DNA of 64,000 nucleotides, from the NCBI GenBank assembly GCA_014859265.1, contig JACUUN010000250.1, positions 1,240 to 65,239 of the forward strand, given 5' to 3'. The stretch comes from Coriobacteriia bacterium (GTDB taxonomy: Bacteria; Actinomycetota; Coriobacteriia; Anaerosomatales; SLCP01). The notes below the pieces were generated by a model that made no database searches, was not told the origin of the DNA, and saw nothing but the letters and a program-made list of their open reading frames with translations. Below, in pieces: positions 42,405 through 56,425 of the stretch (its first letter is position 1; each line of letters starts with the position of its first letter). A program made the translations under genes and the position numbers.

Positions 42405-45400
42405 CTACATCTCTGCCAGCGCCTTCTCCTGACACCCCCTGCGGATGCACTCGATCAGGCGCGGCGCGATGTGAGGGATGAGCTCGGGCAGATAGGCCGG
42501 CATGAGCGATTCCATCGTCTTCGGGAGTAGATCGGGAATGAGTTCCTCCATGTCGTCGGGCATGAGACCGATGTAGTCCTGCACCGCAGCGACCATGTCG
42601 GGCATGACCTTCTTCATGATGCCGTCCACGAGCAGCGGGAAGAGCACCGGCATCATCTTTTCCATGAGCGCCAGCCCGCCGGGGACATGACGCATCGAGA
42701 GCATCATCGGCTTCATGCCCAACGGCATCGCGTCCATCATCTGAGGGAAGATGCCCTCCATGAGGGCTGCCATGTTCTCGGGCTGCATGAGCACGATGAA
42801 CTTCTCGAAGTAGCTCCAGTAGTACATCGATTGCTCGGTCGTCTCTGGAATCTCGTAGCCGGCAGCCTGTGCGACAACGCGCGAAAGGTCGTCGATCTTC
42901 AGTCCGAGGTCGTTCTTGATGTTGCTGTCGCGCAGCTGGACCTGACAGCACGGGCACAGCGCGACGACGGTGTCGGCCTCGACGTCGACCGCCTCCTGTA
43001 GGCGCTGTCTGCCGAGGATCGGCGCGACCGGCATCTCACCGACGAGTGTCAGGACCGAGCCGCAACAGTAGCCTTCTTCGCGGTTGTGCTCCATCTCTAC
43101 GTAGTCGACACCGGGAATCGCCTTGAGCATCTCGCGCGGTGGCTCGTAAAGCCCTTGTGCGCGACCCGCATGACACGAGTCGTGGAAGGTAATGCGTCCT
43201 TCGATCGGGTTCTTGAGCTCGAGTCGCCCGTCGCCGAGAGCCTCGCTCACCAGTTCGGAGTAGTGCTTGACCTCAAACTCGTAGGGCTCGCCACGCTCGG
43301 CAGCGAGACCCGCGTAGACTTCTTTCCAGACGAGCGCGCACGCTGGGCATGACGTCACGATGGTCTTCGCCCCGCGTTTGCGTGCCTCGGCAGTGTTGTG
43401 TTCGTAGATCTCCTCGAAGACGTCCCACTTGCCCGCGACCTTCATCGGTATGCCGCAGCATGCCTCGTCGGTGCCCATATAGGAGATGTCGTATCCGGCA
43501 TCGGTAAGCAGACGCACACTCGCCTCGGCGATATCGGTCTCGACGTAGCTCGCCGTGCACCCCGCGAAGTACATGAGTTCACCCGACTCCTTGAGCTTGG
43601 GCTTCACATCATCGGGGACCCAGTTCGCGCGGTTCTCACGCTTGCCCGCCCAGATGTCGTTCTCCCCCCGAAGCGAGGCCGCCATCATCTCGAACGGCGG
43701 GAAAGTGCCATGCTTCTCCTCGTGCACGAGCTTGCCTCGCATCGCCATCCAGTTGTGCTCGATGGGGAGTTGGAGCTGGCAACGGGTGTTGCAGACCTCG
43801 CATGTGGTGCAGACGAGGAAGGTGTCCACGGCGGTCCGGTCGAAGGCCTCCCGACCTCCCATGACCTCGCGCAAGTAGGCGTATTTGCCGCGTGGCGAGT
43901 GTGACTCCCAGCCGCGTCCTGTGTACTGCTCGCATGTGGGCACGCAGTAGCCACAACGGGCGCATGCGTAGGCCATGAAGGCAACGTCGCCCGGGATGCC
44001 GCGAACATCCTTGAGCTCACCGCTGCGAACCGGAGGCTTCGCGACGTTTGCGACGGGGCGGACGAGCGGCTCGAGCGCACCCGCGGTTCCCATCAGCAGA
44101 TCGAGGGCCCCGGTGCCGAGCACTTTGCCCGGGTTCATGATGCCCTTCGGGTCGACCTGGGACTTGAACGCCTTCAGCTCGCGCACCTTGTCCTCGCCGA
44201 GGACGCTTCCGGCCTCACGCCGGAAGTACAGACCTGTCGAGTAAGCGGAGCCCCCGTGAGCCTTTGCGATCCTGATAACCGAGAGCGAGAGGGCAAAGGC
44301 TACATTGAACGCGAACGAGCGCTCATCATGCGGGATGAATCCAAGCAGGACGACCTGATCGCCCTTCGCATGCATGCCCTCGAGGATGAACGACTGCTTG
44401 ATCTTCTCGTCGATCTCGCGGAGCACCGCGGGCAGTTCGGCGAGGGGCACGACGACCTCGGTGGGCACAAGTGACGGACCGATTCGCTTGAGTCGCATCG
44501 GAGCGAAGCGGACCTCCCACTCGTGCTCCGCTACCTCGGGACCGAGGTCAGTACCCCCGCTCGAGCGCACGAGTGCCTCGAGGCGCTGGTCGACTGACGG
44601 TCTGCGCGACTCGGGATACGCCATGACGGCGATGTAGGCCTCGGGCAACTCCGGTTCGAAGTGCGGATGGAGCTCCTCGTACGGATGGCCGTGCCGGTGA
44701 GGCAACTGCTTCTTGAGCCGCACAGACTCGGGGTTCAGGAAGGTGATCGACCACAACGGCAGATTCTCAGCAGAGATGTGAGAGAGCACCTGTCCAAGCG
44801 CCTTAACGTCAGGAAAGGCGAAGACGCGGTGGACCTCGGGCTCGAGCGGGCGGATCCGAAAGGTAAGCTCGGTGATGATGCCGGTGATACCTTCGGCATC
44901 TGCAACGAACCGTTCGAGCTCCGCACCCCTGAACTCACGCACGCGTCCGCCCGGGAGCACGACCCGCGCCGAAACAACATTCTCCTTGAAGGTGCCGTAC
45001 TCGTACGACCCGAACCCCGCGCCGCCCTGCGCGAGCCAGCCTGCGGCACCCGAGCTCGGAGTTGAAGAGGGATAGAGCCTCAGAGCGAGGCCGTCCTTCC
45101 CGAGCTCCCGCTCTATCTCCTCCCACACAGCCGATGGCTCGACCGTCGCCGTCATCTCCACCCTGTCGACTCCGAGCACCCTGTGCATGCCTGACATATC
45201 CGCGACCACAGCGCCACGACTCGGAAGGACTCCGCCGTAGCCGGATGTAGCCCAGCCGCGCGGGACAACCTTGAGCCCCTCGCGGTCGGCAAGCTCGAGG
45301 AGCGCGATGACCTCGGCTTCGGTCTTCGGCCGTACGACCGCCCCGGCCGTACCCGCGGGCACGAAAGGCTTCACAAGCCTCGGCATCACTCCGATGTCGA

Positions 45401-45494
45401 AGGAGTACATCTTGCGCTCGACGCGACCGGTGCGCACCCGGTCGCCGAAGACCTCCCGGAGGAACTCCTCGATACGCTTGCTCACTGGTGCCAT
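42405..45494 (-). CDS. FAD-binding plus (Fe-S)/CCG-domain oxidoreductase (GlcD-GlcF/HdrD-like fusion) with a Met-rich tail
   Basis: PCMH-type FAD domain (GITGIITE, DPKGIMNPGK), CARCGYCVPTC, CTTCEVCNTRC, ACCGIP, SCPAC, TFHDSCH, CCGS, LCPCC. Confidence 0.88.
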   Translation of the reverse strand: MAPVSKRIEEFLREVFGDRVRTGRVERKMYSFDIGVMPRLVKPFVPAGTAGAVVRPKTEAEVIALLELADREGLKVVPRGWATSGYGGVLPSRGAVVADMSGMHRVLGVDRVEMTATVEPSAVWEEIERELGKDGLALRLYPSSTPSSGAAGWLAQGGAGFGSYEYGTFKENVVSARVVLPGGRVREFRGAELERFVADAEGITGIITELTFRIRPLEPEVHRVFAFPDVKALGQVLSHISAENLPLWSITFLNPESVRLKKQLPHRHGHPYEELHPHFEPELPEAYIAVMAYPESRRPSVDQRLEALVRSSGGTDLGPEVAEHEWEVRFAPMRLKRIGPSLVPTEVVVPLAELPAVLREIDEKIKQSFILEGMHAKGDQVVLLGFIPHDERSFAFNVAFALSLSVIRIAKAHGGSAYSTGLYFRREAGSVLGEDKVRELKAFKSQVDPKGIMNPGKVLGTGALDLLMGTAGALEPLVRPVANVAKPPVRSGELKDVRGIPGDVAFMAYACARCGYCVPTCEQYTGRGWESHSPRGKYAYLREVMGGREAFDRTAVDTFLVCTTCEVCNTRCQLQLPIEHNWMAMRGKLVHEEKHGTFPPFEMMAASLRGENDIWAGKRENRANWVPDDVKPKLKESGELMYFAGCTASYVETDIAEASVRLLTDAGYDISYMGTDEACCGIPMKVAGKWDVFEEIYEHNTAEARKRGAKTIVTSCPACALVWKEVYAGLAAERGEPYEFEVKHYSELVSEALGDGRLELKNPIEGRITFHDSCHAGRAQGLYEPPREMLKAIPGVDYVEMEHNREEGYCCGSVLTLVGEMPVAPILGRQRLQEAVDVEADTVVALCPCCQVQLRDSNIKNDLGLKIDDLSRVVAQAAGYEIPETTEQSMYYWSYFEKFIVLMQPENMAALMEGIFPQMMDAMPLGMKPMMLSMRHVPGGLALMEKMMPVLFPLLVDGIMKKVMPDMVAAVQDYIGLMPDDMEELIPDLLPKTMESLMPAYLPELIPHIAPRLIECIRRGCQEKALAEM

Positions 45495-46389: not shown

Positions 46390-46650
46390 CTAGAAGGCCT
46401 TGCGCCGGATCAGGGCAACCCACGCGCCGTCGAGACGCTGGTCGTAGAAGTACTCAAACTTCCCGCGGGTCTCCTTGCGCAGATCTATCTGATAGCCGAT
46501 GCCGGTAGGCTCATGGTCGGTCACGACCAGAAGGCTGTCGGGCGCGTCGAATTCAAGCATCTTGTCGATAACGCAGAAGACCAGCGGCCTGCGGAGGTCG
46601 GGCGTACAACCGCGCACGTCGAGCACAACCCCCTGTGAAGTGCTTGACAC
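46390..46650 (-). CDS. DUF2249-like small protein
   Basis: GTG 46650 with GGAGGGG RBS; LDVR...LLVVTDHEP..IGYQ...FEYFY...GAWVALIRR. Confidence 0.7.
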   Translation of the reverse strand: MSSTSQGVVLDVRGCTPDLRRPLVFCVIDKMLEFDAPDSLLVVTDHEPTGIGYQIDLRKETRGKFEYFYDQRLDGAWVALIRRKAF

Positions 46651-46713
46651 CTGGTCACCCCTCCGAGATCAGCCAGAGGCGCTGTTGCCCGTGGTCACTT
46701 CTTTGGTTCGGCG

Positions 46714-46914
46714 CTATGACCCGCCATCCTCCTCGTTCTCATACAGCTCTGCGAGGTCGGCACCGGCACAGTCCGCGGTCTCCCGTGGTGAGAGCGACTC
46801 CAGATCTGTGTCGCACCGCTCCCTGAATGCCTCTTCGTCCTCGCCCGGCAAGGGCGTGTCGGGTGCGTCGCCAAGTGAAGAACGCCGTTCCTCGTCTCGT
46901 GCCCCAGATAGCAT
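46714..46914 (-). CDS. Small acidic hypothetical protein (66 aa)
   Basis: AGGAG RBS 8 nt before the ATG; fills the gap upstream of the DUF2249-like gene; no recognisable family. Confidence 0.4.
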   Translation of the reverse strand: MLSGARDEERRSSLGDAPDTPLPGEDEEAFRERCDTDLESLSPRETADCAGADLAELYENEEDGGS

Positions 46915-47467
46915 GGCGCGCGCTCCTGTCCTTCGACGGCTCTCTGTCTCTTCTGTACGTCATTCCCATATTGGGCACGATTCTTAGCTCAAACAGCGTC
47001 GAATGGGTAGAATGGTTTCAGTTCGTGTGGACAGTCGTGCACTGCTTGCCTGGAGGATGCGCGACGGAGGTCAGCCGGAAAACTGGTGCTCTTCCACCTG
47101 GGGGTATCGGCACCCATGCATTGCTTCGCAATGTCAACCTCTGAGATCTGCTCGGACCGTGCGTCCGTGGCGCATGCTTGTGTTCCTCTTCAGGTCGCGT
47201 CGAGAGTCTCGGCACCTTCTCGAGGATTCCGCACACCCTCTCAGCACTTCCCTTACTCCCGGCCTGGGCAGCGTCGGCCATCTCGGCCACACACGCTCTG
47301 CTTGCGTATGGGCATATTACAGGACATCCAGGGCGATTCAGTTGTTCACAGGAAGGGGGTCTGAGCTGACGACGCCGTGACCATCGAGGGTACTTGACCG
47401 AAGCGTCGAGCCGCCCCGCGTGGCGAGACGCGCACAATGTCTGGATTCGAACAAGGAGGTGTATGGC

Positions 47468-48634
47468 ATGGCGCATGAGGACCACGACGTAATCTACGAC
47501 CTTCTCGCAGCGAGAGGCGTGTCGCGCCGCGACTTTCTCAAGTACTGCGGATCGATCGCGGCGCTTCTGGGACTGTCCGAGTCCTTCGTACCTCAGATCG
47601 CTGCAGCCGTGGCCGCCGGCGCGAAACTGAAGCCCGCTGTATGGCTTAACGGCGGCGCATGCACGGGGTGCACGGAGTCGATAGCGCAGGTCGATTCGCC
47701 CGACGTGGCGACGATCGTGCTGGATCTGCTCTCGCTCGACTACATCGAGACCCTCTCCATGGCCCAGGGTGAAGACGCGCTTGCCGCGGCCGAGGCGGTA
47801 TTCGAAGAGCCCGGCTACATCCTCATCTATGAGGGTTCCGTCATGCAGGGCTTCGACGGCAACACGCTGCGCATCGGTGGCAGCACAGGTATCGAGGAAC
47901 TCGAGCACGCAGCCCAGAATGCGGCAGCGATCGTCGCTGTAGGGTCGTGTGCGGTCGACGGCGGTTTCGTCAGGGCCAACCCGAACCCCGCCGACGCGAC
48001 CGGCGTGAAGCCCTACCTCGAGAAGGTGGGCATCACCACTCCCGTCGTCAACCTGCCCACCTGCCCCGTTAACCCGGAGTGGGTCGTGGCCATCGTCGTG
48101 GATGTTCTGCTTCTCGGATCTCTCGAGAGCGGCGCCATCCTCGACAAGCTCGACGACTGGGGCCGTCCCAAGTTCATCTTCGGCCAGACGATTCATGACA
48201 ACTGCCCGCGCCGCGGCCACTTCGAGAATGGCCACTTCGTCAACGAATTCGGCACCGAAGAAGAGGCCCTCGGCTACTGCCTGTACAAGGTAGGCTGCAA
48301 GGGCCCGCAGACCTACACGAACTGCCCGATCGTGCGCTGGAACCGTCGCGCCAGTTGGTGCGTCGAGTCCGGAGCACCCTGCATCGGTTGCGGCAGCCTC
48401 AACTGGGTCGACGTCGGAGCTCCGTTCCTTAACCGTCATCGTGACCTGCCTCTCCCCAGCGTCGGCAACACCCAGCCCGGCGTGGTTGCTGGCGTGGTCG
48501 CTGGTGCCACGGCACTGGGTCTCGGCCTCCATGCCCTCGGTATGAAGGCAAGTGGCCGGATGGACGGCGGCGCTCCCTACGAAGACATGAAGAACTACGA
48601 CCGCAAGCGGATGAAGAAGGGAGGCGGTAACTAG
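47468..48634 (+). CDS. hyaA: Hydrogenase small subunit, Tat-exported, C-terminally anchored
   Basis: AAGGAGG RBS; SRRDFLK Tat motif; CTGCTES, GSCA, PTCP, HDNC, CLYKVGCKGP, NCP, WCVESGAPCIGC; C-terminal hydrophobic helix. Confidence 0.96.
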   Translation: MAHEDHDVIYDLLAARGVSRRDFLKYCGSIAALLGLSESFVPQIAAAVAAGAKLKPAVWLNGGACTGCTESIAQVDSPDVATIVLDLLSLDYIETLSMAQGEDALAAAEAVFEEPGYILIYEGSVMQGFDGNTLRIGGSTGIEELEHAAQNAAAIVAVGSCAVDGGFVRANPNPADATGVKPYLEKVGITTPVVNLPTCPVNPEWVVAIVVDVLLLGSLESGAILDKLDDWGRPKFIFGQTIHDNCPRRGHFENGHFVNEFGTEEEALGYCLYKVGCKGPQTYTNCPIVRWNRRASWCVESGAPCIGCGSLNWVDVGAPFLNRHRDLPLPSVGNTQPGVVAGVVAGATALGLGLHALGMKASGRMDGGAPYEDMKNYDRKRMKKGGGN

Positions 48635-50280
48635 TGGCTCGATCAGTTGTCGACCCGTTGACCCGAATCGAAGGTCACCTTCGCGTCGAGGTCGAAGTCA
48701 ATGACGGTGTCGTGACCGACGCCTGGGTGTCCGGCGGGCTGTATCGAGGCATGGAGACCATCCTGCTCGACCGCCGTCCCTCAGACGCGTTCTTTGTCGC
48801 CCAGCGTATCTGCGGTGTGTGCCCAATCTCTCACGGCCACGCCTCAACGATGTCGACAGAGGACGCACTCGGAGTCACGATCCCGAACAACGCGCGTCTC
48901 GTACGCAACCTCATCGAGGCCGCACAGTACATCCACAGCCACATCTTGTGGTTCTACACCCTGGCAGCACTGGACTACGTCGACCCGGTGAAGGCACTGT
49001 CGGCCGATATCGCCGACACCTACGCGCTCGCGCAGGCTGCCGGCACCGGTGTCTCCGACTTCGGTGCCGTCGCCAAACGTCTGCAGGCGTTCGTTGACAA
49101 CGGCCAGCTGTCCATCTTCACCAACGGCTGGTTCGGCCATCCTGCGTACGCCGAGGACATGCCCGCCGAGCTGCACCTCATCGCGGTCGCACACTACCTC
49201 GAGGCGCTCGAGATGCAGGCTGTCGCAGCCGAGATCATCGCAGTCATGGGTGGCAAGTTCCCGCACTTCATGACCTCGATCCCCGGCGGGACCGCCTTCG
49301 TGCCGACCGAGCAGAAGCTCGACGACATCCTGTTCCGCTTCATCAAGCTGCGTGACTGGGTCACGAGCACCATGATTCCGGACACGCTCGCCATCGCACC
49401 GTTCTACGCCGGTGCGCTCGAGTACGGCGGAGGGCACGGGAACTTCCTCGCGTGGGGCGTGTTCAACGACGAGTCCTTCGAGATGACCAGCCGCTACCTG
49501 CCCGGTGGTGCGGTCATGGCGAGCCGGGGGCTCACTGTTGCCGATCCCGACCCTGGCAATATCACCGAGTACGTCGAGCGTTCGTGGTACGACTCGACCA
49601 CGGGCCTCAACCCATCCGTCGGCGAGACGAACGCGAACTTCGACGAGTACAGCACCGATGCTCAGTACTCATGGGTCAAGGCACCCCGCTACGACGGCCA
49701 GCCGATGGAGGCCGGTCCCCTCTCCCGAATGCTCGTCGCGTACCTTCGCGGCGTTCGTCCGGTCCAGGAGATCGTTGACGGCGCGCTCGCTGCCCTTGGC
49801 GCAGCAGGCAAGCCGGAGGTCCTTGTGTCGCTGCTCGGTCGTATCGCAGCCCGCAACCTCGAGACCAAGGTCGTCTGTGACTGGTCGATCGACTGGTTCA
49901 ACGAGCTTGCCGGAGCCATCGCCGGAGGAGATTCTAAGTACTTCGAGCCCCACGACGTGGATGCCGGTCAGGGTGCAGGAATGTGGGAGGCGCCTCGTGG
50001 CGCTCTCGGCCATTTCATCGACATCCAGGGCGGCAAGATTGCCCGCTACCAGGTTGTCACCCCGTCGACATGGGACACCTCGTCTCGTGATGATGAGGGC
50101 GTTCGCGGCCCGATGGAAGAGGCGCTCGTCGGCACTCCGATCATCGATGCCGAGCGTCCGCTCGAGGCGTGCCGGGTCGCACGTAGTTTCGATCCTTGAA
50201 TCGGGTGCGCGGTTCACGTGATTGAACCGAAAACCGGCAAGGAAGCAACCGTCTACACGAAGCCGATGGGGGTGAGGTAG
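48634..50280 (+). CDS. hyaB: [NiFeSe]-hydrogenase large subunit (selenocysteine at TGA 50197-50199)
   Basis: TRIEGH, QRICGVC (L1). The frame continues SFDP-U-IGCAVH-VIEPKTGKEATVYTKPMGVR to TAG 50280, completing L2 and abutting the next ATG at 50281. Confidence 0.96.
50210..50229 (+). promoter_or_regulatory. Bacterial SECIS-like stem-loop
   Basis: CGGTTCA-cgtgat-TGAACCG, 7-bp stem beginning at the 11th nt after the UGA, GU in the loop. Confidence 0.8.
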
Positions 50281-50961
50281 ATGTCGCATCCCGCACACTA
50301 CCGTGAGGCTCATCCGCTGATCTTCGTGTTCACGCACTGGATCAACCTGATCGCGATAGTAGCCCTGGCGTTCTCGGGCTTCTACATCCACTACCCCTTC
50401 TTCGGCGGGTTCATGGGTGTGGCTCGCGGCATGCACTTCTTCTTCATGTACGTACTCCTCATCAACCTAGCCGTGCGCATCGTCGCCACGTTCTTCGTGA
50501 AGTCGGCGACCCGTCTCGGCACGCGTGAGGTCGATACGGACATCAAGAACTGGCTACCGCAGAAGCTCAACCGCCACCAGTTCATCCCGTGGCTCAAGTA
50601 CTACCTGTTCCTGAAGAAGGACCATCCGATCGGGGCGAAGTATGGTGTTCTGCAGAAGATCTCCTACCTCTTCACCATCCCGCTCACGCTTGCGGCTGCT
50701 TACACCGGCTTCTCGATCTATGCGCCATTCATGGATGCGAGCTTCTTCGCTGCAGGTACCGACTGGGTCGGCGGGCCGATGAACATGCGGATCATCCACT
50801 ACTACATCATGTGGGCGTTCATCTTGTTCACGGCGATCCACGCCTATCTGGCGAACGTGGAAGGCATTGCTCCTTCCCGTCTGATCTTCGCGTGGAAGGA
50901 AGAAGAAGGCGTTCAGTTCGACGCAGAGGGTAAGATCGTCGGTGGAGCTGGACACTACTAA
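50281..50961 (+). CDS. hyaC: Ni/Fe-hydrogenase di-heme b-type cytochrome subunit
   Basis: Four TM helices with His ligands (THWIN, GMHFFF, RIIHYY, AIHAYL); YGVLQKISY. Confidence 0.93.
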   Translation: MSHPAHYREAHPLIFVFTHWINLIAIVALAFSGFYIHYPFFGGFMGVARGMHFFFMYVLLINLAVRIVATFFVKSATRLGTREVDTDIKNWLPQKLNRHQFIPWLKYYLFLKKDHPIGAKYGVLQKISYLFTIPLTLAAAYTGFSIYAPFMDASFFAAGTDWVGGPMNMRIIHYYIMWAFILFTAIHAYLANVEGIAPSRLIFAWKEEEGVQFDAEGKIVGGAGHY

Positions 50962-51019: not shown

Positions 51020-51139
51020 TTTGCGCCGCAGAGGGAAGCGGAATGTGAGGCCGCACCTCACCGGGACGGAATGCGGTAGAGTATTCGCCACACATCTCGC
51101 ACGAATCGGCTACATGATGGCGTGCATGAGAGGATACGG

Positions 51140-52468
51140 ATGCTTTCCGAACGCATCATCACTACAGCCCTCCGCATACTGAACAAGCACTACCTGCATC
51201 AGGAACCCATCGGCCTCGAGTCGGTTCCCGGACCTCAGCCCAGTCACGGATACGTCCTCTATGCGCATGTCCCCTTCTGCGAGCGTCTCTGCCTCTACTG
51301 CTCGTTCAACCGGTATCTCTTCCAGGAAGATCGGGCACGCGAGTACTTCAAGCGGCTCCGGCGTGAGATGCAGATGGTCGCAGAGCTCGGGTACGACTTC
51401 CCGTCCCTTTACATCGGAGGCGGAACCCCGACCATTCTGCTCGACGAACTCGCCGAGACGATCGATCTGGCACGCAGTCTCTTCTCGATCGAAGAGGTAT
51501 CGAGCGAGACAAGCCCGAACCACCTGGGCCCGGAGCTCGTCTCCGTGCTCAAAGACCGGGTGCAGCGTCTTTCGGTGGGCATCCAGAGCTTCGACGACAG
51601 GATACTGCGGCAGGTCGACCGGTACGACAAGTACGGGAGCGGCGAGGAGATCTTCGAGCACATCGGTTCGGTAGCCGGAAAGTTCCACTCGCTCAACGTC
51701 GATCTGATCTTCAACTTCCCGTCCCAGACCGAGGAGATGCTGCGACGCGACATCGAACTGTTGAAGGCCTCGGGAGCGAACCAGACGACCTTCTACCCGC
51801 TCATGGCATCGCCCCGAACGCGGGCAGAACTCGCCCGTCAGGTCGGCAACATCGATTTCGCACGGGAGGCGCGATACTACCGCATCATCACCGACAGCCT
51901 GACTCCCGAGTTCCAGCCGACCTCGGCATGGACGTACTCCCGTGACACCGACGCGATGATCGACGAATACATCGTCGACTACGGAGAGTATGTCGGCATC
52001 GGCTCTGGTGCACTCTCATTCCTCGATGGGCGCATCTACGGCAACACCTTCTCACTGCGGGACTACATCGCACGCATCGATGCCGGGCACATGTCGGTGG
52101 CAAAGGCGGGCAAGCCCTACTCGAACACGGCGATGCGACGCTACCGTTTCGTGACCGACCTCTTCGGTCTCAGACTCGACAAGGAGCGGTTCCAGCGCGA
52201 CCTCGGCGCGCCAGTAGAGCGCGGGCTCTGGGCCGAACTGGCCTTCATGCGCGCGGCAGGGGGAATCGCCGGAGACGACGGGCGCTACATCACTCTCACG
52301 GAGAAGGGGCGCTACCTGCTTATGGTCATGATGAGGGAGACACTCGCCTCCTCGAACGACCTCAGAGATCATGCGCGCGACGAACTGCCGCCGGATGAGC
52401 GCATGCTCCTCATCGAGGGAGAGCAGTGCGAGGAGGTCCCTGGCAATGCGCACCGCGCCGCCATGTAG
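51140..52468 (+). CDS. menK: HemN-like class C radical SAM enzyme, probably menaquinone C-methyltransferase MenK
   Basis: ATG 51140 with GAGAGGA RBS; YAHVPFCERLCLYCSF, YIGGGTPT, RLSVGIQSF, NVDLIFNFP, and QTTFYPLM, which matches the MenK/MqnK signature as I recall it. Confidence 0.7.
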   Translation: MLSERIITTALRILNKHYLHQEPIGLESVPGPQPSHGYVLYAHVPFCERLCLYCSFNRYLFQEDRAREYFKRLRREMQMVAELGYDFPSLYIGGGTPTILLDELAETIDLARSLFSIEEVSSETSPNHLGPELVSVLKDRVQRLSVGIQSFDDRILRQVDRYDKYGSGEEIFEHIGSVAGKFHSLNVDLIFNFPSQTEEMLRRDIELLKASGANQTTFYPLMASPRTRAELARQVGNIDFAREARYYRIITDSLTPEFQPTSAWTYSRDTDAMIDEYIVDYGEYVGIGSGALSFLDGRIYGNTFSLRDYIARIDAGHMSVAKAGKPYSNTAMRRYRFVTDLFGLRLDKERFQRDLGAPVERGLWAELAFMRAAGGIAGDDGRYITLTEKGRYLLMVMMRETLASSNDLRDHARDELPPDERMLLIEGEQCEEVPGNAHRAAM

Positions 52469-52528: not shown

Positions 52529-53086
52529 GTGACCACCGTGACCGAACGCATCCTCATACTCGGCATCGGAAACCCTCTCATGACCGACGAGGGCGTGGGC
52601 GTCCGCGTCGCCGAGCTCATCATGGGCGGCTACGAACTGCCCGATAGCATCGAGGTGGTCGATGCCGGCACGATGGGCCTTGGCATCATGAACCTCTTCC
52701 GCGATCGCGACCTGGTCGTCGTGGTCGACGCAGTCGACAACACCGGCCACGAGCCGGGAACCGTAATCCTCCTCACGCCCGAGGAACTCGCTCCTGCCCA
52801 AATAATGCACTCTCTTCACGACATGCGCTTCGTGAACGTGCTCGAGGCAGCAGCCCTCACAGGCATGCAGCCGGAGGCGATCTGTGTCGGCATCCAGGTC
52901 GCCCGCATGGAGCAGTGGGTAATGGAGCTGACGCCCGAGGTCGAGGCGGCACTTCCCGCGGCGGTCGCTGCGGTCCTCGACATCCTCGCCCAGCGCGGTA
53001 TCCGGCTGTTACCTGTCGAGGGTGGATCGATCGACGCCAGCATCATCGAGGCGATACGCACGCGCAGCCGAATGCCCGAGGCCTAG
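52529..53086 (+). CDS. hyaD: Hydrogenase maturation protease
   Basis: ILGIGNPLMTDEGVG, VVDAGT, VVVDAV, SLHD. Confidence 0.95.
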   Translation: MTTVTERILILGIGNPLMTDEGVGVRVAELIMGGYELPDSIEVVDAGTMGLGIMNLFRDRDLVVVVDAVDNTGHEPGTVILLTPEELAPAQIMHSLHDMRFVNVLEAAALTGMQPEAICVGIQVARMEQWVMELTPEVEAALPAAVAAVLDILAQRGIRLLPVEGGSIDASIIEAIRTRSRMPEA

Positions 53087-53106: not shown

Positions 53107-53934
53107 ATGCACGACGAACTTGCGGCAGCCATCGCAGCCGCGGAGGCCGGGGCGCGGGTCGTCCGGGAACGCGCAGACGACATCGGGACGGTGCGCTCGA
53201 AATCCTTCGCAACCGACCTCGTGACCGAGGTCGATATCGCGGCAGGTGTCGCCATTGCGCGCGCACTCCTGGAGCGGGACCCATCGGCACGGCTCGTCGT
53301 CGAAGAAGACGAGGTCTACGATATCGTCGGGGCTATGCGCGGCGATCTCGATGGTGCACAAGTCTGGGTGATCGACCCCGTCGATGGGACGACCTCGTTC
53401 GTCCATGGGTTCCCGGGATACTCGGTGTCGGTAGCACTGCTGCGCGACGGCCATCCGGTTGCCGGAGCGGTCACCGACGTCCCCCGCAGCGTCACGATGA
53501 GCGCCGCCGAGGGTACAGGCACTGCTCTCGACGGCCGTCCCGTCCGCTGTTCTGACGCCACCCGCCTCGATGAGGCGCTCCTCGTGACCGGCTTCCCCTA
53601 CGACCGCGGCGCACCGCTCGACCGTCAGCTTGCCGTGCTGGCGGCGTTCCTGCGCGCACCTGTGCACGGTATCCGGCGCGACGGCTCTGCTGCTCTGGAC
53701 TGCTGCCACATCGCAGCGGGCCGCGCCGACGGTTTTTGGGAGTACGGGCTGCAGCCGTGGGACACCGCGGCCGGAGCGATCCTCTGCCGCGAGGCAGGCG
53801 CCCGGGTGACCGACATCGAAGGGCGGGAGTGGTCGCCAACCGCGAACAGCGGCATCGTCGCTGCAAACCCGGTCCTCCACGAACTCATGCTCGAGCTCGT
53901 CCGGAGAACCAGCGCGGATCTAGCGGATCAGTAA
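53107..53934 (+). CDS. suhB: Inositol monophosphatase family protein
   Basis: DLVTEVD, WVIDPVDGTTSF, GSAALD, LQPWDTAAG. Confidence 0.9.
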   Translation: MHDELAAAIAAAEAGARVVRERADDIGTVRSKSFATDLVTEVDIAAGVAIARALLERDPSARLVVEEDEVYDIVGAMRGDLDGAQVWVIDPVDGTTSFVHGFPGYSVSVALLRDGHPVAGAVTDVPRSVTMSAAEGTGTALDGRPVRCSDATRLDEALLVTGFPYDRGAPLDRQLAVLAAFLRAPVHGIRRDGSAALDCCHIAAGRADGFWEYGLQPWDTAAGAILCREAGARVTDIEGREWSPTANSGIVAANPVLHELMLELVRRTSADLADQ

Positions 53935-55403
53935 TACCGCTTCTGCTCCTCGGAGTCCTCGGCCAACGCTATCCCCCACTCACCGAGAACCTTGCTCACC
54001 GCCCGCTCGCCGCTCTCGACACAGTTTGGCAAGCCGACGCCACGGTACGAGCCACCTGCGAGCGCAAGACCCGGCACCTCTGCGGAGCGCGTCTCGATGG
54101 CCTCCACGCGACCCAGATGGCCCATGGTGTACTGAGGCATGCCCTTCTCCCAGCGGAACACCTTCGTGAACAGCGGGTCCCCCTTAACGCCGAGAACCTG
54201 GCGCAGCTCGGTCAGCACTATCTCCGCGAGGCGGTTATCGGACTCGGCCATGATCGCCTGGTTGTGCGGCCCGCCGACGAACCCGCGCAGGAGTACCTTG
54301 CCCGCCGGTGCGCGCCCGGGCCACTTGGTCGACGAGAGTGTCGCCGCCATGAGGGAGCGGTTCTCTACAAGTGGGCAGAGCACGCCGAACGCGTTCATAT
54401 CGATGCCCACCTCGGACTCCTCGAATGCAAGAGAGACCGTTGCCGAGGAAGAGTGCTCGATGCCAGCGAGCGCGTTGCCGATGACCGGGTCGACAGGGCG
54501 CACCAGCCTCTCCGCCGCCCAGCTCTCGGTCGCCATAATGACCGCGTCGCCATCGATGCGGGTTCCGTCATCAAGGTCCACCGTCCAGCCGTCGACGGTG
54601 CGCGACATCGCAGTCACCGCAACACCGGTTCGCATGCGATCTCGGCCTGCAGCATCGGCCATCGAGTCCGTGAGTCGCTGCATGCCGGTCTCGAACGAGG
54701 TGAAGAACGTCCGGGGCTTGGCGCCGGGCTTTGGCGGGTACTTCTTGCGCATCTCGGCGACCTTCTTGCGCGCGGCGTAGAAGCCCTTGATCATCCCGCC
54801 GTAGGTCTGCTCCATCTCGAGGAGGCGCGGGAAGGTCGCGGCGAGACTCATCTTCGCCGGATCCGATGCGTGCACCCCGCCCACGAGCGGCTCGGCCAGC
54901 CGGTCAAGACACTCGCGTCCCATTCTGCGAACCACGAAACTCTCGAGGGTCTCATCCTCCAGGCCGTCGCCGGTGACCTTCTTGGGCTTGATGAAGAGGT
55001 CCATCCCCATGCGGATCTTGCCGGGCCAGGAGAAGAGCCCCGTGGTGGCGAAGGGCCAGAACTTGGTCGGAGCGAACATCATCACGCCGTCAGGCAGGTC
55101 GTGCAGGCGACCGCGCGACAGGATGTAGGTGCGCTTGCGGGAATCATCGGTGGGCAGCTCCTCGTCGAAGATGCCCATGAGCTTCGCGATGCGGTGCACG
55201 GCAGGCTTCTCGGTGAGGAAGCAATCGGGGCCACCGTCCACGATGAACCCCTCGACCTGCTCGGTAGCGATCTTGCCACCGAGGCGCGGATCTTTCTCTA
55301 CGAGCACGAACTCAACCTCGTGGCCGGCCTCTGCGGACCGGGCGATCTTGAAGGCGGCAGCCAGACCGGCGATTCCGCCTCCGACGATGATGATCCTCCT
55401 CAT
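53928..55403 (-). CDS. hemG: Coproporphyrinogen/protoporphyrinogen oxidase (HemY/CgoX type)
   Basis: IIIVGGGIAGLAAA, RLGGKI, DGGPDCF, GMPQYTMGH, GVGLPNC; clustered with hemH and hemE. Confidence 0.93.
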   Translation of the reverse strand: MRRIIIVGGGIAGLAAAFKIARSAEAGHEVEFVLVEKDPRLGGKIATEQVEGFIVDGGPDCFLTEKPAVHRIAKLMGIFDEELPTDDSRKRTYILSRGRLHDLPDGVMMFAPTKFWPFATTGLFSWPGKIRMGMDLFIKPKKVTGDGLEDETLESFVVRRMGRECLDRLAEPLVGGVHASDPAKMSLAATFPRLLEMEQTYGGMIKGFYAARKKVAEMRKKYPPKPGAKPRTFFTSFETGMQRLTDSMADAAGRDRMRTGVAVTAMSRTVDGWTVDLDDGTRIDGDAVIMATESWAAERLVRPVDPVIGNALAGIEHSSSATVSLAFEESEVGIDMNAFGVLCPLVENRSLMAATLSSTKWPGRAPAGKVLLRGFVGGPHNQAIMAESDNRLAEIVLTELRQVLGVKGDPLFTKVFRWEKGMPQYTMGHLGRVEAIETRSAEVPGLALAGGSYRGVGLPNCVESGERAVSKVLGEWGIALAEDSEEQKRYY

Positions 55404-55432: not shown

Positions 55433-56425
55433 TTACAGCAGAGGCGTTATCGCCTCTGCTATCGAGTCAACCAGCAGCTCGTCCGCATTGGGGACGGCTG
55501 CGCGCGCGAACTCGATGTCGGCGTCCAGCACGCGACCGGCCACCACGACGTCGAGATCGTAGAGCGTCTCCATGTGGTCGGTAGCGAAGCCGACCGGCGC
55601 AACGGCAATCGACCTGTACCCACCCGCAATCGCTGCATCGATGACGTCGTCGAGGTCGGGGCCGAGCCATTCGCAGGGCCGGTTGCCCCTGGACTGGTAT
55701 GCGAAGACCCAGGATTGCGGCTCATCCAGGCAGCCGTAGGTCTTCACGCCGACCAAACGCGGGTCGGTCCCGTCCAACTCAATCCCCTCACCCATTTGGA
55801 GAATCGAGACGATGCGGTCGACCACGCCGCGTAACGCCGGGACGTACGGATCATCCTCGTCTAGGTCCTCGACGGGCAGAGAGTGCGCCGTGAAGACGAG
55901 CAGTGAAGGGGTGTGTTCCTTTATGTCGGTGAGAGCCTCGGCAGCACCGCCAACCAGTAGCCCGCCGAAGCCCGAGAGCGTGTGGAGCGGCGGCGCCTCG
56001 ACGAGCTCCATCTCCTCAAGATCGCTCACCGCCTCATCGAGCGCCTCCCGGTACGCTCCGGTCGCGACTTTGGACTCGAACGGCGAGAGGGAGACCACCA
56101 CCACCCTGCGGACGCCGTACTCGTAGAGGTGGCGCAGCGTCTCCCCGATGAGTGGATCCCAGTAGCGCATTCCGATCACAACGGGGACCTCGTGAGCACC
56201 CTCGGCCAGCTTCGCCTCCAGCTTGGTCGCGAGTTCTCCAGCGATGGCGAGAAGCGGGGACGACCCGCCGATCGTGAGGTAGCGTCGCTGCACCTGCTGG
56301 ACGAGCTCCTCGGACGGCTCGTAGCCCATCAGGTTGCGCATGAACGGGCCGACGGAATCGAGGCAGTCCGGCCCGCCGAAACCTACGAGCATGACCGCAG
56401 TAAGTGGCTGTCCGTTCCCGCTCAT
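55433..56425 (-). CDS. hemH: Ferrochelatase (probably coproporphyrin type)
   Basis: GFGGP, RYLTIGGSSPL, GMRYWDP, FTAHSLP, YQS...WLGP, GFATDHMETLYDLD. Confidence 0.93.
   Translation of the reverse strand: MSGNGQPLTAVMLVGFGGPDCLDSVGPFMRNLMGYEPSEELVQQVQRRYLTIGGSSPLLAIAGELATKLEAKLAEGAHEVPVVIGMRYWDPLIGETLRHLYEYGVRRVVVVSLSPFESKVATGAYREALDEAVSDLEEMELVEAPPLHTLSGFGGLLVGGAAEALTDIKEHTPSLLVFTAHSLPVEDLDEDDPYVPALRGVVDRIVSILQMGEGIELDGTDPRLVGVKTYGCLDEPQSWVFAYQSRGNRPCEWLGPDLDDVIDAAIAGGYRSIAVAPVGFATDHMETLYDLDVVVAGRVLDADIEFARAAVPNADELLVDSIAEAITPLL

Follow-up and report, generated by a model that had tools for sequence, protein, structure and literature searches.

A predicted selenocysteine-containing, cytochrome b-linked group 1 hydrogenase operon in a Coriobacteriia bacterium and its relatives within the class

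Does a hydrogenase operon of a Coriobacteriia bacterium combine a selenium-containing active site with a membrane cytochrome b, and is this combination exceptional? The question is raised by a stretch of 64,000 nucleotides from contig JACUUN010000250.1 (assembly GCA_014859265.1), here called the window, for which a preliminary description had read the positions 47468-50961 as a quinone-coupled [NiFeSe] uptake hydrogenase and had regarded this as an uncommon combination. Judged from its sequence, the enzyme belongs to a selenocysteine (Sec)-type branch within the cytochrome b-linked group 1 hydrogenases of the Coriobacteriia, and the feature is ordinary for its own clade. According to the listing of open reading frames (ORFs) and their translation, the operon consists of five co-oriented genes on the plus strand, coding for the small subunit, the large subunit, the cytochrome b, a radical-SAM protein and HyaD (Table 1). 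The genome of the window has a size of 2.34 Mb and is 97.7% complete.

In the large subunit, the L1 motif reads RICGVCPISH and the L2 motif DP-U-IGCAVH, U being the in-frame TGA; a C-terminal tail of 20 residues follows. A Sec large subunit with a cleavable tail had been named in the preliminary description. Beyond the TGA, the frame stays open for 27 codons and ends at a TAG right before the cytochrome b gene. In all complete loci of relatives, from more than 60 species genomes, this downstream frame, the Cys-xx-His motif and the tail were found to be conserved. A hairpin with a 7-bp stem (CGGUUCA/UGAACCG) and the loop CGUGAU begins 13 nt from the first base of the UGA. The stem was compared over 64 distinct sequences and shows standard pairs in 96% of the cells, with compensatory swaps at the pairs 14-33 (GC 38, CG 16) and 15-32 (GC 40, CG 24). 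The observed covariation was matched by none of 500 shuffles, and sliding the partner columns abolishes the pairing. Since the GC/CG swaps entail coupled amino acid changes (Ala/Gly with Pro/Arg), they are a sign of selection on the RNA. Cys-type homologues coding for a similar peptide served as the control; here an average of 3.6 of the 7 stem positions are paired, compared to 6.7 of 7 in the Sec-type genes. The 74 nt after the UGA, folded as a whole, did not reach significance (z-score −0.37), and the hairpin is convincing only through its covariation. A scan with Rfam at the gathering threshold identified two tRNAs in the window and no match to a selenocysteine insertion sequence (SECIS) family.

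The machinery for the insertion of Sec is encoded in the same genome. The genes selD (373 bits), selA (599 bits) and selB (371 bits) as well as tRNA-Sec (72 bits) all score above their curated cut-offs and form one cluster (G000:C44:10394-18451). The selD gene of this genome itself contains an in-frame TGA. The TGA of the large subunit is predicted to be a Sec codon on four independent lines of evidence, which are the downstream conservation, the hairpin, the Cys-type control and the Sec machinery.

The start codon of the small subunit was assigned to the ATG at position 47468, which has the sequence AAGGAGG 8 nt upstream. A GTG at position 47420 was rejected, as it is merely the beginning of the longest ORF. 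The Tat signal and the C-terminal anchor named in the preliminary description were both recovered, the former as the motif SRRDFLK (TIGR01409) and the latter as a hydrophobic stretch at about residues 338-360 in the hydropathy analysis. The motif of the medial cluster is WCVESGAPCIGC, in which a Cys replaces a Pro. In the phmmer alignment to the small subunit of D. vulgaris Miyazaki (1H2A_S), NWPVDAGHPCIGC stands over SWCVESGAPCIGC, so that WC is found opposite WP. Because this alignment places the Cys at the Pro of the [3Fe-4S] enzymes, the change from Pro to Cys, which had also been described before, is real. Predicted ligand sets for three [4Fe-4S]-type clusters are present, with the fourth Cys at the medial site. 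The first motif of the proximal cluster, CTGC, is of the standard type and, as far as this first motif goes, differs from the six-Cys [4Fe-3S] pattern of the O2-tolerant Group 1d enzymes. The Gly in CTGC stands where these enzymes carry an extra Cys.

The membrane subunit, annotated as hyaC in the preliminary description, was predicted to be a b-type cytochrome with PF01292 (76 bits, above the cut-off of 30 bits). The residues His19, His52, His173 and His187 do not vary among 76 orthologues, Cys-type and outgroup sequences included. By analogy with HydC, these four residues are taken to be haem ligands, and the spacing of 13 residues between His173 and His187 is assumed to be that of the HydC-type dihaem cytochromes. 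The genes of the three subunits are tightly packed. At position 48634, the stop codon of the small subunit and the GTG start codon of the large subunit overlap, and the TAG of the large subunit (50278-50280) is directly joined to the ATG of the cytochrome b (TAGATG), whose start is coupled to this stop. The hyaD gene of the preliminary description is present but does not lie within 47468-50961; it is located behind the radical-SAM gene, which sits between the cytochrome b gene and hyaD. The presence of HyaD agrees with a removal of the tail from the large subunit once the metal has been inserted.

How common this arrangement is was analyzed by a scan of species-representative genomes, which resulted in 76 loci that are 56-93% identical to the window. 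Almost all of them are labelled as metagenome-assembled genomes of Coriobacteriia, Anaerosomatales or Actinomycetota, and some have Eubacteriales labels that are probably mistaken. The cytochrome b gene directly follows the large-subunit gene in all loci with enough sequence (61 of 61). Of 53 related loci, 42 continue with a radical-SAM gene, and 43 of 47 encode HyaD. The WC motif occurs in every small subunit read. All complete loci contain the Sec codon except L063, which has TGC. In a class-wide search the enzyme was found in 194 of 301 genomes, and exactly one TGA was identified in 127 of the 150 matches listed. The tabulation of Sec and Cys among relatives, which the preliminary description had suggested as a check, shows that Sec predominates in the clade, with 68 of the 87 large subunits in the tree in addition to the listed matches. 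The predicted Sec residue, the cytochrome b and the four-Cys medial site together are the rule within the lineage, and the term 'uncommon combination' does not hold for it.

Two sets of matches have no TGA. One consists of larger-genome families (f26, f30 and f31) with about 50-55% identity to the window, the other of second copies in four genomes of the same order that also hold a Sec copy. All Cys-type loci have the order small subunit, large subunit and cytochrome b as well as the WC motif, and none has the radical-SAM gene. The genomes with both Sec-type and Cys-type copies (loci L099, L100, L102 and L103 in G045, G061, G095 and G225) recall the selenium-regulated NiFe/NiFeSe pairs of Desulfovibrio. 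Another locus, L105 (G139:C24), has the motif FDPSATCAVH with a Ser at the position of the Sec/Cys nickel ligand, which may be explained by an error in sequencing, an inactive copy or an unusual variant.

The 87 large subunits were used for a maximum-likelihood tree, calculated by a quick method with SH-aLRT support and an arbitrary root. The phylogeny, also suggested in the preliminary description, places the enzyme of the window together with the Cys-type enzymes in one Coriobacteriia clade (SH-aLRT 95). Within it, a Sec clade of 67 rows includes the window and contains one nested Cys reversion on a long branch. The Cys-type sister branch comprises 13 rows (support 99), and one Sec row is unplaced. 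At least three changes between Sec and Cys are required by the tree, whose arbitrary root allows either state to be ancestral. In a library of representatives at 50% identity, Cys-type sequences stand for the whole Coriobacteriia clade, the best of them with 52% identity. No more than 6 of the 87 classifiable library representatives end at DP, which indicates that Sec is rare across the wider family and says nothing on the clade itself.

Among the solved structures, the best relative of the large subunit is 1H2A_L with 447 bits over the full length. The crystallised [NiFeSe] HysA reached about 330-350 bits, mostly over residues 177-541, and E. coli Hyd-1 about 345-350 bits. By these scores, the predicted large subunit is nearer to the standard periplasmic Desulfovibrio [NiFe] enzymes than to HysA. 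The features of the [NiFeSe] class, which are an in-frame UGA in the nickel motif, a SECIS hairpin, the Sec machinery and a fourth Cys at the medial site, were all found. With the HysAB enzymes of D. vulgaris Hildenborough and Desulfomicrobium baculatum (2WPN, 5JSH, 1CC1, 4KL8), the enzyme shares the Sec at DPUxxCxxH, the Tat-exported small subunit, the four-Cys medial site and the dedicated protease. Unlike the enzyme of the window, HysAB has no cytochrome b and passes its electrons to the soluble cytochrome c3. In E. coli Hyd-1 and the HydABC of Wolinella succinogenes, the anchored small subunit, the four-helix cytochrome b with four His and the HyaD-type protease are similar, whereas both use Cys and a medial [3Fe-4S] cluster with Pro.

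The combination of a [NiFeSe] hydrogenase and a cytochrome b is already on record for the Firmicutes, where such clusters were described in Syntrophaceticus schinkii and in syntenic genomes, the examples being Thermacetogenium phaeum, Carboxydothermus hydrogenoformans and Desulfosporosinus orientis (PMC5113046). By their published description, these clusters resemble that of the window in the Tat-signal small subunit, the Sec large subunit and the cytochrome b-like subunit, and differ in the phylum. Two further loci in genomes of the same order (L112 and L113 in G081 and G109) encode a more distant Sec-type hydrogenase with 42-45% identity and the motif FDPUMAC, with a cytochrome b and a protease downstream. 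They may be of the Firmicutes type.

In the HydDB classification, the Coriobacteria group 1i was split out of group 1a and is a described cytochrome b-linked subgroup; [NiFeSe] variants are flagged in its Table 1 only for the groups 1a, 3a and 3c (PMC5037454). Anaerosoma tenue and Parvivirga hydrogeniphila possess clusters of large subunit, small subunit, cytochrome b and protease that were classed as Group 1i, and selenocysteine is not mentioned in the description of the Anaerosomatales (PMC9686372). The operon in the window has the host and the gene order of Group 1i, with a cluster of small subunit, large subunit and cytochrome b in a member of the Coriobacteriia. It agrees with the Group 1i isolates in class, order and the cluster of small subunit, large subunit, cytochrome b and protease. 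A look-up of accession numbers gave no link between the clade of the window and those of the cultured strains. The Cys-type enzymes of gut-like Coriobacteriia have the WC motif in common with the window, and their cytochrome b is 50-57% identical. In contrast to this Cys-type sister branch, which includes large gut-type genomes, the branch of the window has Sec and usually the embedded radical-SAM gene. The literature searched, to which the review by Baltazar et al. (2011) did not belong, contained no report of Sec in Group 1i or in hydrogenases of Coriobacteriia, OPB41 or Actinobacteria. A subgroup with Sec and cytochrome b as the norm, which according to the preliminary description would have spoken against its claim, largely exists in the Group 1i relatives and the Firmicutes clusters.

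Taken together, the product of the operon is very probably an H2-oxidising [NiFeSe] hydrogenase of the Coriobacteriia type (HydDB Group 1i-like) that is exported by the Tat system and anchored in the membrane. The UGA in the large subunit would be read as Sec, directed by the downstream hairpin together with SelA, SelB, SelD and tRNA-Sec, so that selenium would replace sulfur as the terminal nickel ligand. Electrons from H2 would travel along the cluster chain to the membrane cytochrome b with its four His and two haems, which may hand them to menaquinone from the futalosine pathway, and H2 oxidation outside the cell would thereby be coupled to anaerobic respiration. In the same order, there are cultured relatives that possess the cluster classed as Group 1i and use H2 for growth together with sulfur compounds or Fe(III) (PMC9686372). 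Several observations weigh against this interpretation. The scores with the HysA and HysB models NF045518 and NF045520 stay below their cut-offs (434 vs. 780 bits for the large and 232 vs. 470 bits for the small subunit), and the best-scoring model NF033181 (NiFeSe_hydrog) gave 518.9 bits vs. a cut-off of 600 bits, with Sec entered as Cys. The cytochrome b scored 97 bits with TIGR02125 (hydrogenase cytochrome b) vs. a cut-off of 121.5 bits and had no match among the solved structures in a phmmer search at E 0.01. The assignment to Group 1i is based on the published classification of relatives and on the large-subunit tree, and the enzymes of the clade are predicted from sequence. Furthermore, the quinone step is weakened by the finding that respiratory quinones were 'not detected' in either of the cultured Anaerosomatales (PMC9686372).

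Were the TGA a true stop codon or an assembly error, the large subunit would be a shortened protein or the gene a pseudogene. The public protein records read for the clade agree with this at first sight, all ending at about residue 521 under a plain name. Among the 120 best homologues from 5.8 billion proteins, all but one (119) stop exactly at ...SFDP, the exception having DPCVAC, and the closest proteins are recorded by NCBI and JGI with 521 residues as 'nickel-dependent hydrogenase large subunit'. Such a truncation would cost two of the four metal ligands, and it is opposed by the frame, CxxH motif and tail conserved in the species genomes mentioned above, the covarying hairpin and the Sec machinery. 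Considered together, the 119 of 120 records ending at ...SFDP and the single TGA in 127 of 150 listed genome matches show that the Sec-codon pattern is not due to chance. The records ending at ...SFDP are products of gene callers stopping at the Sec codon, and the reading as a stop codon or pseudogene can be considered effectively refuted by the sequence data. A larger share of doubt concerns the electron acceptor. The cytochrome b might not reduce quinone at all and might serve as an anchor only, or pass electrons directly to another acceptor chain in the membrane or at the cell surface, for example to multihaem cytochromes that serve in the reduction of Fe(III) or sulfur. This would fit the two cultured Anaerosomatales with the same cluster in which quinones were undetected (PMC9686372), the classical menaquinone pathway, of which MenA and MenB were not found in the genome of the window, and a cytochrome b that diverges from the rest of its family. 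On the other side, MqnA and MqnC of the futalosine pathway are encoded in the genome, the four-His dihaem pattern of the quinone-reducing hydrogenase cytochromes b is invariant, and a MenK-like radical-SAM gene lies within the operon. In addition, a comparison table lists MK-6 and MMK-6 for gut Coriobacteriia with the sister enzyme, and the describers of the cultured Anaerosomatales themselves suggest an electron transfer via cytochrome b and quinone (PMC9686372). Transfer from H2 to menaquinone is considered the likeliest path, with direct transfer to another acceptor as its main rival; a cytochrome b without quinone reduction, in either form, is rather unlikely.

The direction of catalysis could also be the reverse, with an enzyme that evolves H2 or runs both ways and disposes of electrons from the quinone pool instead of being dedicated to uptake. 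[NiFeSe] enzymes are known for their high H2-production activity. Expression of the cytochrome b-linked [NiFeSe] cluster under conditions of H2 production is reported for S. schinkii (PMC5113046). However, menaquinol is on thermodynamic grounds an unfavourable electron donor for the evolution of H2, the enzyme is built like the Tat-exported group 1 hydrogenases that face outward, and the cultured relatives grow by H2 oxidation (PMC9686372), so that this direction appears very unlikely. For the quinone-coupled NiFeSe uptake hydrogenase of the preliminary description, the Sec-containing uptake type, the cytochrome b and the protease were found, and the quinone link is the most reasonable assumption.

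[NiFeSe] hydrogenases are prized for their fast catalysis and their quick recovery after exposure to oxygen, and to our knowledge all well-studied representatives are soluble enzymes of sulfate reducers. The operon described here would belong to a widespread lineage of the subsurface and of sediments with a selenium enzyme wired to the membrane. Its branch is large, is shortened in the public records and was not flagged as [NiFeSe] in PMC5037454 or PMC9686372. It is tentatively proposed, at somewhat less than even likelihood, that the environmental Coriobacteriia (Anaerosomatales and neighbouring orders) harbor a large lineage of [NiFeSe] hydrogenases, membrane-bound and linked to a cytochrome b, whose annotation is consistently wrong. 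This lineage would be the Sec-type sister of the gut Cys-type Group 1i, perhaps with a gain of Sec separate from the Desulfovibrio HysA line, and the Sec/Cys pairs would perhaps act as a selenium-dependent switch. If this is true and undescribed, it would be the first family of quinone-linked [NiFeSe] respiratory hydrogenases with cultured hosts for biochemistry. Since the records stop at about residue 521, the clade is under-counted wherever selenoproteins or hydrogenase types are surveyed, and classifiers given such records meet an enzyme without half of its metal site. With Anaerosoma tenue and Parvivirga hydrogeniphila as two cultured H2-growing relatives, the selenium content and the electron acceptor are directly testable.

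Table 1. Positions of the hydrogenase operon and its elements in the window.
Feature	Position	Strand	Evidence
Hydrogenase small subunit	47468-48634	+	TIGR00391 307 bits (above cut-off), PF14720, PF01058, Tat-signal model TIGR01409
[NiFeSe]-type large subunit (predicted), 548 residues	48634-50280	+	PF00374 E 1e-164
Selenocysteine codon TGA (predicted)	50197-50199	+	First Cys position of the C-terminal nickel-binding motif
SECIS-type hairpin	50210-50229	+	Fold and covariation
b-type cytochrome membrane subunit (predicted), HyaC/HydC family	50281-50961	+	PF01292 E 3e-21
HemN-like (class C) radical-SAM gene	51122-52468	+	PF04055; NF006385 502 bits, above cut-off
HyaD/HybD-type maturation endopeptidase	52529-53086	+	PF01750; TIGR00072 129.5 bits, above cut-off

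Directly downstream of the hydrogenase operon, the minus strand encodes an amine-oxidase-type flavoprotein (53928-55403; PF01593, possibly a HemY/CgoX-like oxidase), followed by a ferrochelatase (55433-56425; PF00762). Genes of haem synthesis thus adjoin the cytochrome b-containing enzyme and the HemN-like gene, and with the amine-oxidase-type gene and the ferrochelatase downstream a haem-related role of the radical-SAM gene is also possible.

Upstream of the operon, the minus strand contains a gene for a DUF2249 protein of 86 amino acids (46390-46650) and a second small acidic ORF (about 46714-46978), both of which keep their position in related loci. The plus-strand ORFs 46499-46987 and 47003-47380 were rejected as parts of the operon, as they are low-complexity antisense or off-frame readings of the small minus-strand genes. 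Further upstream on the minus strand, a fused oxidoreductase of 1029 residues (42405-45494) is encoded with the domains FAD_binding_4 and FAD-oxidase_C, a 4Fe-4S dicluster and two CCG domains, which resembles a GlcD-type dehydrogenase fused to an HdrD/GlpC-like module. Elsewhere in the genome, a second large-subunit gene with PF00374 was identified (G000:C102:6573-8435), the sole further one; it has an open frame of 672 residues with no TGA and probably belongs to another hydrogenase group.

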